Below are positions 15,693 to 16,168 of a stretch of DNA of 64,000 nt, piece after piece; position 1 is the first letter of the stretch; each line of letters opens with the position of its first letter. The notes under the pieces are model-generated. The model ran no database searches. It was not told the origin of the DNA and saw only the letters and a program-made list of their open reading frames with translations. The translations under genes were made by a program, and so were the position numbers. This DNA comes from Escherichia coli (GTDB taxonomy: Bacteria; Pseudomonadota; Gammaproteobacteria; Enterobacterales; Enterobacteriaceae). The stretch is from NCBI RefSeq assembly GCF_044647545.1, contig NZ_CP172818.1, one strand, 5' to 3'.

Positions 15693-15952
15693 CTTAGATG
15701 TCCGGTATTAAGTAAGTTGCACACACAATAATTTCGTCTTCAATTAAGATCGGCTTAACTAAAGAACGCTCGCTATTATTCAGATAATTCAAAATGAGCG
15801 TGACTGTGATGATAGGAATTATGTTTTTTACGGGAATAAGAATAATCTCAAATGAGAAATAACTCATTGATTGACAATATTTTTATTCAAGAAGTGTCAT
15901 TGAGTGTTAATACAATGTTGTAAAGGTAAGATAATCTGATTTATGAATATTA

Positions 15953-16153
15953 TTGTGTGATTTTTATGTGAGCAGAAAATATTCATCAGCAATGATTACA
16001 TTAGTCATTTTATTTTGCCGACGGCCTCATTGTCGAAAAATAAGCGTACAACAGTATTATCAGAAAAGAGTGATTTTTTATCCAACTACACTTCAGCGCA
16101 CTGCGTTTAAAAAATGCCTCTTTCTTATGCGGGATATCATTATTTCATCATGA
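15953..16153 (+). CDS. Small hypothetical ORF at the position where K-12 carries ymgI/ymgJ
   Basis: 66-aa ORF (ORF track; start may be internal ATG); AT-rich context; identity not verified. Confidence 0.25.
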
Positions 16154-16168
16154 TGTCTTTGATGAGCG

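Follow-up and report, generated by a model that had tools for sequence, protein, structure and literature searches.

Does the AT-rich DNA between ymgG and ycgI in Escherichia coli encode small proteins, as the annotation of ymgI and ymgJ at this place in K-12 implies, or is it control DNA across which short frames happen to be open? The question concerns positions 15693-16168 of the 64-kb stretch of E. coli DNA that was analysed here (the window), where the gene order is ycgH' (an autotransporter pseudogene), ymgD, ymgG, the interval itself, ycgI', and then minE-minD-minC. Over positions 15300-16700 the sequence is the same as in E. coli FDAARGOS_497 (100% identity), and it matches K-12 derivatives at 96.9% identity. 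The interval lies directly upstream of ymgG and is AT-rich, as the original prediction had it, with a G+C content of 0.319 over 15693-16168 and of 0.27-0.32 in 200-nt windows across 15700-16099. On comparative sequence evidence, we consider it quite probable that this divergent, AT-rich interval is non-coding control DNA and not a pair of conserved small-protein genes. The adjacent gene and the annotated frames are the following.

15348..15692, minus strand: ymgG, the leading gene of the ymgG-ymgD operon, which starts with TTG and encodes a glycine-zipper protein (RefSeq WP_000726974.1)
15694..15867, minus strand: ymgI ortholog, 57 codons from an ATG, 52/57 amino acids identical to K-12 YmgI; its stop codon (TAA) is 1 nt from the ymgG start
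15968..16153, plus strand: ymgJ ortholog, 61 codons from a GTG, 57/61 amino acids identical to K-12 YmgJ
16114..16233, plus strand: 39-codon ORF, a RefSeq "hypothetical protein" that overlaps the 3' end of ymgJ and falls where the autotransporter leader described below is most conserved

The 66-codon frame that had been pointed out at 15953..16153 is present and TTG-started; it consists of ymgJ plus five upstream codons, and RefSeq and K-12 both begin the gene at the in-frame GTG at 15968. The 57-codon frame on the other strand is accompanied by several shorter frames nearby. The suggestion that this is the place where K-12 carries ymgI and ymgJ was correct, as the two ORFs are orthologs of those genes in the same synteny. 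Both K-12 genes are uncharacterised, and both ymgI (b4593, between ymgG and ycgI) and ymgJ (b4594) agree with the window ORFs in position, strand, length and start codon. Their products differ from those of the window at 5 and 4 residues, respectively, and in each case nearly every nucleotide difference alters an amino acid. K-12 annotation accepts and names both genes and RefSeq annotates both throughout, but in the matching strain FDAARGOS_497 RefSeq calls them only "hypothetical protein". The 39-codon ORF is unannotated in the MG1655 record and is called by RefSeq in the K-12 derivative DH5alpha and in FDAARGOS_497.

The lengths of these ORFs are unremarkable, because shuffled sequences give comparable ones by chance: dinucleotide-preserving shuffles of 15693-16168 contain a complete ORF of 66 codons or more in 12% of cases, those of 15693-16268 do so in 24%, and a pair of ORFs of 57 codons or more turns up in 2-9%.

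Relationship of the right part of the interval to the ypjA/ehaD upstream region

The interval had been described as a spacer. This is accurate in that it is AT-rich with short ORFs, but it is not featureless, and a paralog of the region upstream of ypjA can be recognised in its right two thirds. Three features describe this part of the locus.

15914..16268, plus strand: orphaned 5' upstream region of a YpjA/EhaD-type autotransporter gene, paralog of ypjA -385 to -30
16268, plus strand: deletion junction, at which two BLAST segments abut with a 1-nt overlap
16268..16612, plus strand: ycgI pseudogene, a 3' remnant comprising the last ~114 codons (345 bp) of the autotransporter beta-barrel

Positions 15914-16268 align over 356 nt, at 87.9% identity, with the DNA upstream of ypjA in K-12 and O157:H7, and the match ends 30 nt before the ypjA start codon. 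When 5,426 complete E. coli genomes were searched with a 601-nt query (15680-16280), the median genome matched in two places; in O157:H7 the sole match is the 87.9% identical segment covering 15914-16268, which lies just upstream of ypjA/ehaD. The two loci have the 356 nt and the 39-codon ORF in common, whereas the ymgJ frame exists only at the locus studied here. They also differ in what precedes the shared region, which is a pinH recombinase fragment at ypjA and ymgI-ymgG here. A link between the pinH fragment and the ymgI side was considered and rejected, there being no convincing similarity left of 15914 in the alignment.

ycgI and the intact autotransporter alleles

On the other side of the junction, the 355 nt at 16268-16622 share 96.6% identity with the 3' end of ypjA. 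The ycgI remnant matches TIGR01414 at positions 319-432 of 432 as well as the Pfam Autotransporter family, and RefSeq marks it as a pseudogene "missing N-terminus". Because both ypjA-like segments abut at 16268, ycgI is a ypjA paralog minus its middle. K-12 ycgI is the ortholog of this remnant and has the same deletion junction, but it carries an extra frameshift where the window frame is uninterrupted.

Alleles that retain the middle exist. In ETEC4068 and PCP07014 the order is ymgI, ymgJ, the 39-codon ORF, an intact gene for an "adhesin-like autotransporter YpjA/EhaD" (1,154 and 1,128 aa, respectively), and then minE. The intact gene begins 64 nt past the stop of the 39-codon ORF and 30 nt past the homolog of 16268. 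A stretch of 3,149 bp in ETEC4068 (L006 9970..13118) has no counterpart in the window; it runs from 30 nt upstream of the autotransporter start to about codon 1040. The deletion junction is matched across by 4,559 of the 5,426 complete E. coli genomes (84%), K-12 included, and at least 80% of the 601-nt query is matched in 5,007 genomes, a count that includes undeleted alleles. The difference between these two counts suggests that the undeleted form is present in roughly 450 complete E. coli genomes (~8%), an approximate figure with which the first three of 30 evenly spaced rows of a match listing agree.

These comparisons point to the following history for the right part. Positions 15914-16268 would have been the promoter and long 5' leader of a plus-strand YpjA/EhaD-type adhesin gene, and the deletion of ~3.1 kb took away its ribosome-binding site and start codon together with about 1,040 codons, fusing the leader at 16268 to the last ~114 codons, now ycgI. 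The ymgJ and 39-codon frames thus sit inside an orphaned leader. ycgI can be described precisely on this basis, as a 3.1-kb internal deletion of a YpjA/EhaD paralog, of which roughly 8% of complete E. coli genomes still have an intact copy.

The locus in other Escherichia species

A YmgD scan of species-representative genomes gave five loci. The complete interval is retained in E. albertii, with about 79% identity, and an autotransporter frame that stays open for at least 412 aa comes after the leader there. Homology in the three representatives E. whittamii, Escherichia sp. E1V33 and SCPM-O-B-8794 ends at window positions 15971-15992, inside the ypjA-like block, and resumes at minE; by this alignment these three have evidently lost the autotransporter through a different, larger deletion. 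The intact E. albertii and E. coli alleles and the differing deletions therefore indicate that the autotransporter and its leader are ancestral at this site and have been lost repeatedly.

Coding capacity of ymgI, ymgJ and the 39-codon ORF

Variation within the species was compared in ten E. coli strains, with ymgG and the sampled part of ymgD as the control for genuine coding constraint in Fisher tests. YmgG matches the Pfam family Gly-zipper_YMGG (E = 2.9e-14). Its protein is invariant in 10/10 of the strains, with 9/9 ymgG segregating sites at third codon positions; for ymgG and the sampled ymgD part together there are 16 segregating sites, none of them at codon positions 1-2, so that pN/pS is 0 and the proteins do not vary. 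The three frames of the interval behave differently from this control (codon-position tests p <= 8e-4), and none of them shows purifying selection on its amino acids. In ymgI, 8 of the 9 segregating sites are at codon positions 1-2 (pN/pS 2.2; Fisher p = 8e-6 versus ymgG/ymgD), the substitutions are mostly at second codon positions, and the ten strains carry 6 protein variants. The 39-codon ORF has 10 segregating sites, 7 of them at positions 1-2 (pN/pS 2.2; p = 2e-4 versus ymgG/ymgD). The corresponding figures for ymgJ are 9 of 16 (p = 8e-4 versus ymgG/ymgD), with a pN/pS of 0.57 that is compatible with weak constraint.

Comparisons over longer distances are similar. Between species, substitutions at codon positions 1-2 versus position 3 number 74 versus 38 in ymgI and 25 versus 111 in ymgG (p = 1e-14). 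The 39-codon ORF differs from its counterpart at ypjA by 6 substitutions, all nonsynonymous (6/6), and from that of E. albertii by 25, distributed 9/8/8 over the codon positions. No purine-rich GGAGG-like element is found within 20 nt upstream of the start codons of ymgI, ymgJ or the 39-codon ORF.

The extent to which the frames are kept varies. The ymgI frame is open and 57 codons long in 10/10 of the E. coli strains sampled, and RefSeq places an ORF there in the sampled E. coli records; the ymgI block is found in 5,111 of the 5,426 E. coli genomes, a count of DNA presence and not of ORF intactness, and is absent from about 315, O157:H7 among them. Among the GTDB species representatives the frame has 42 codons in E. 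albertii, 32 in E1V33 and 10 in E. whittamii, and it is absent from SCPM-O-B-8794; some E. albertii and E. ruysiae strains have versions of 50-53 codons whose C-terminal halves are similar. The original prediction allowed for real short proteins here and proposed conservation across Escherichia of the 66-codon frame, that is of ymgJ, as a check. Such conservation is not seen. ymgJ is intact in 8/10 of the E. coli strains and frameshifted in the ST131-type strains uk_P46212 and Esc3, its counterpart upstream of ypjA is broken by a stop at codon 12 and by an indel of 1 nt, the frame is not kept in E. albertii, and most of ymgJ is missing in E. whittamii, Escherichia sp. E1V33 and SCPM-O-B-8794. 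The 39-codon frame is open in both paralogs and is open for 34 codons in E. albertii, and its start varies among E. coli strains, being ATG, GTG or ATA.

A search of 5.8 billion proteins gave 47 homolog clusters for YmgI, the named ones all from Escherichia or Shigella, and 23 for YmgJ, all with E. coli names except one, "Enterobacteriaceae bacterium MCC505"; the homologs differ widely in length. The YmgI clusters carry a precomputed Pfam family, and PF28591 and PF28592 cover YmgI/YmgJ, with PF28592 being carried by the YmgJ clusters; the local Pfam copy contains no such model, and scans of the three ORFs against the local copies of Pfam and NCBIfam gave no matches. Neither the names nor the coordinates of ymgI and ymgJ occur in the supplements of the acid-stress Ribo-seq paper or of PIRT-Seq. 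They are also not in the supplement of Stringer et al., which has no coordinates for minE or minD either, so its silence is uninformative. An FlhDC SELEX peak listed beside ymgJ (PMC9962212) falls, by hand-converted coordinates, downstream of ycgI and outside the interval.

By these comparisons the three ORFs are without protein-level constraint, and they presumably give rise to no functional protein. Amino-acid conservation is not a prerequisite for function in leader peptides or in very young genes. It is unlikely that ymgI is a conserved protein-coding gene. Like spurious or lineage-restricted ORFs in AT-rich intergenic DNA, ymgI and ymgJ have no ribosome-binding site, no codon periodicity, a narrow phylogenetic range, variable length and a size expected by chance; unlike typical members of that class, they are long-standing named genes of the K-12 reference, now with Pfam families.

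The main alternative to a non-coding control region is that ymgI, ymgJ or both are genuine young small-protein genes of E. coli and Shigella that originated de novo in regulatory DNA and whose translation is weak or conditional. This reading is not very likely, although it accommodates the intactness of ymgI in all ten strains and of ymgJ in eight, the ymgJ pN/pS value, and the acceptance of both genes by K-12 annotation, RefSeq and Pfam. It also draws on a 16-fold change in ymgI mRNA in a butanol-tolerant mutant (PMC4888631), but that transcript signal is explained equally well by a ymgG leader. The lack of a Shine-Dalgarno sequence, the ymgI pN/pS value, the lack of codon periodicity between species and ORF lengths that are within chance expectation all argue against young genes, as do the breakage of ymgJ in the ypjA paralog and its frameshift in the ST131 lineage, which is without consequence for the neighbouring genes.

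We note that ymgI and ymgJ are already annotated and already known, so the outcome is an annotation point and not a discovery. Two named K-12 genes and a 39-aa ORF propagated by RefSeq are without an evolutionary coding signature and appear to be located in regulatory DNA, ymgJ inside the leader of an autotransporter gene that is deleted in most E. coli strains. Work that lists these frames among the "hypothetical proteins" whose function is still to be found (PMC12356324 is one example) may be directed at frames that are not genes.

The conserved stretch at 16094-16243

The most conserved part of the ypjA-like region, 16094-16243, corresponds to the stretch just upstream of the autotransporter ribosome-binding site in intact alleles, and from this location it would be the promoter-proximal leader of the autotransporter gene. 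In 30-nt bins its identity is 93-100% with the ypjA paralog and 67-87% with E. albertii, although the E. albertii and E. coli autotransporters share only 31% identity in their passenger domains. Such conservation would be expected if these positions were a specific cis-regulatory leader of YpjA/EhaD-type autotransporters, either a structured RNA or a regulatory uORF, that is still active here, for example as a small transcript. The 39-codon frame, which is open in all copies examined, and a perfect 10-bp palindrome (CATCATGATG) within the stretch would fit such an element. We nevertheless regard this as unlikely. The 39-codon ORF lacks a conserved start codon and differs between copies almost exclusively by nonsynonymous changes, a scan of both strands of 14800-17400 with Rfam covariance models gave no match (E <= 1), and a consensus RNA fold of the autotransporter leader from five sequences received no support from covariation (covariation term +0.16 kcal/mol).

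Because the downstream gene has been deleted in the window, any leader element here has nothing left to regulate, and the orphaned leader is probably now without function in this strain. A scan for promoter-like sites was at chance level (4 sites versus 2.9 expected), no terminator was found, and the RfaH ops element (GGCGGTAGNNTG) does not occur in the interval. A related proposal, that the ~150 nt common to E. albertii and to both E. coli loci form a dedicated cis-regulatory leader of YpjA/EhaD-type adhesins (a uORF or a protein- or RNA-binding element) and that, separately, ymgI and ymgJ are emerging proto-genes, is in our judgement likewise an unlikely one.

DNA adjoining ymgG

For the left part of the interval, about 15693-15867, a non-coding control region would mean upstream and leader DNA of the minus-strand ymgG-ymgD operon, across which the ymgI frame is simply open in E. 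coli. Three features lie in this part, the second and third of them as leads only.

15693..15800, minus strand: conserved DNA block adjoining ymgG, putative promoter and 5' leader of ymgGD
15780..15793, plus strand: RcsB-box-like motif TCAGATAATTCAAA, matching the core TNAGANNNNTCNNA, in a stretch nearly invariant across the aligned Escherichia
15837..15850, matching on both strands: RcsB-box-like motif TAAGAATAATCTCA, matching the same core

The 107 bp adjoining ymgG (15694-15800) are 89-93% identical across Escherichia, with 7-12 substitutions relative to four other species, and are conserved to the same degree as the ymgG coding sequence. The substitutions are spread evenly over the ymgI codon positions, without codon periodicity. 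Farther from ymgG, 15801-15867 diverges faster, with 16-22 substitutions per 67 bp relative to other Escherichia. The pattern suggests DNA conserved as promoter, leader or regulator-binding sites, and with the ymgI stop codon only 1 nt away from where ymgG begins, the leader of ymgG necessarily runs through the ymgI frame. ymgG and ymgD belong to the RcsB regulon and are induced by RcsB (PMC2731931), ymgG-ymgD is induced by envelope-damaging drugs (PMC5105897), and the small RNAs OmrA and OmrB are reported to repress a reporter fusion that carries the ymgG 5' UTR and early coding region (bioRxiv 10.64898/2026.06.26.734639). Positions 15693-15800 probably act as the promoter and 5' leader of this operon, a target of the Rcs envelope-stress response.

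It is highly improbable that ymgI is instead an upstream leader ORF translationally coupled to a weak ymgG TTG start, its peptide sequence being irrelevant: the adjacency of the ymgI TAA to that TTG, the lack of an obvious Shine-Dalgarno sequence before ymgG and the open frames that end at the ymgI stop in E. coli, E. albertii and E1V33 would suit such coupling, but ymgG is perfectly conserved in both E. whittamii, where the ORF has 10 codons, and SCPM-O-B-8794, where it has no start codon, ymgI itself is without a Shine-Dalgarno sequence, and in Edwardsiella hoshinae the ymgG-ymgD pair occupies another genomic setting, where it follows an unrelated 204-aa ORF and nothing resembling the ymgI frame is present.

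As candidate elements of the putative control region upstream of ymgG, the two RcsB-box-like motifs share TNAGANNNNTCNNA, which we take to be the RcsB-box core consensus. The pattern is not enriched in the 64-kb window, where 5 matches were found versus 5.9 expected, and the two motifs of the interval account for 3/5 of them. By eye in the alignment, the core of TAAGAATAATCTCA is degenerate in E. whittamii and SCPM-O-B-8794 and is kept in K-12, E. albertii and E1V33.

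The autotransporter genes flanking ymgD-ymgG

Two autotransporter genes lie on either side of ymgD-ymgG, and the one upstream of ymgD is ycgH:

window ~12800-14953: ycgH, autotransporter pseudogene, upstream of ymgD

The ycgH gene carries an internal stop and is a pseudogene in FDAARGOS_497, the strain identical to the window over 15300-16700, and it is frameshifted in K-12, whereas strain PCP07014 has an intact copy (5611-8274 of its locus, L007). This distribution indicates that the autotransporter genes on both sides of ymgD-ymgG have decayed in most strains and remain intact in a few.

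The leader of the other gene, which is of the YpjA/EhaD type, contains a perfect palindrome:

window 16124-16133: 10-bp palindrome CATCATGATG, inside the 39-codon ORF (16114..16233, + strand)

The stretch around it, ATATCATCATTTCATCATGATGTCT, has the same sequence in the ypjA paralog, in E. albertii, in K-12 and in the intact alleles. The window carries ATT where these have ATC, a single-base difference lying just 5' of the palindrome. The palindrome may serve to bind a protein, or it may form a hairpin within the leader of the autotransporter gene.

Surroundings of the leader in other genomes

In both O157:H7 and K-12, part of a site-specific recombinase (invertase) gene lies directly in front of the paralogous region upstream of ypjA and points the same way:

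O157:H7 ypjA locus (L003) 5811-5978: pinH fragment
K-12 ypjA locus (L004) 6066-6305: pinH fragment

This arrangement may be the trace of an element, invertible or mobile, that once adjoined the adhesin promoter.

In three non-coli Escherichia lineages (E. whittamii, Escherichia sp. E1V33 and strain SCPM-O-B-8794; L008, L009 and L010), about 160 nt of unrelated sequence separates the truncated leader from minE (reverse-complement coordinates ~6960-7136), and no similarity between this sequence and the E. coli locus could be detected. Records classed as plasmids account for 13 of the 8,152 places that match window 15680-16280.

Direct repeats

Long direct repeats are present near the end of the window:

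window 61774-62978: two long direct repeats with a spacing of ~743 bp; identity is 98% over 241 nt and 97% over 219 nt
window 62012-62079 and 62756-62821: rdlD antitoxin RNA (Rfam match), one inside each repeat

From the K-12 map, we take these to be, probably, the LDR (ldr/rdl) type I toxin-antitoxin repeats of E. coli.
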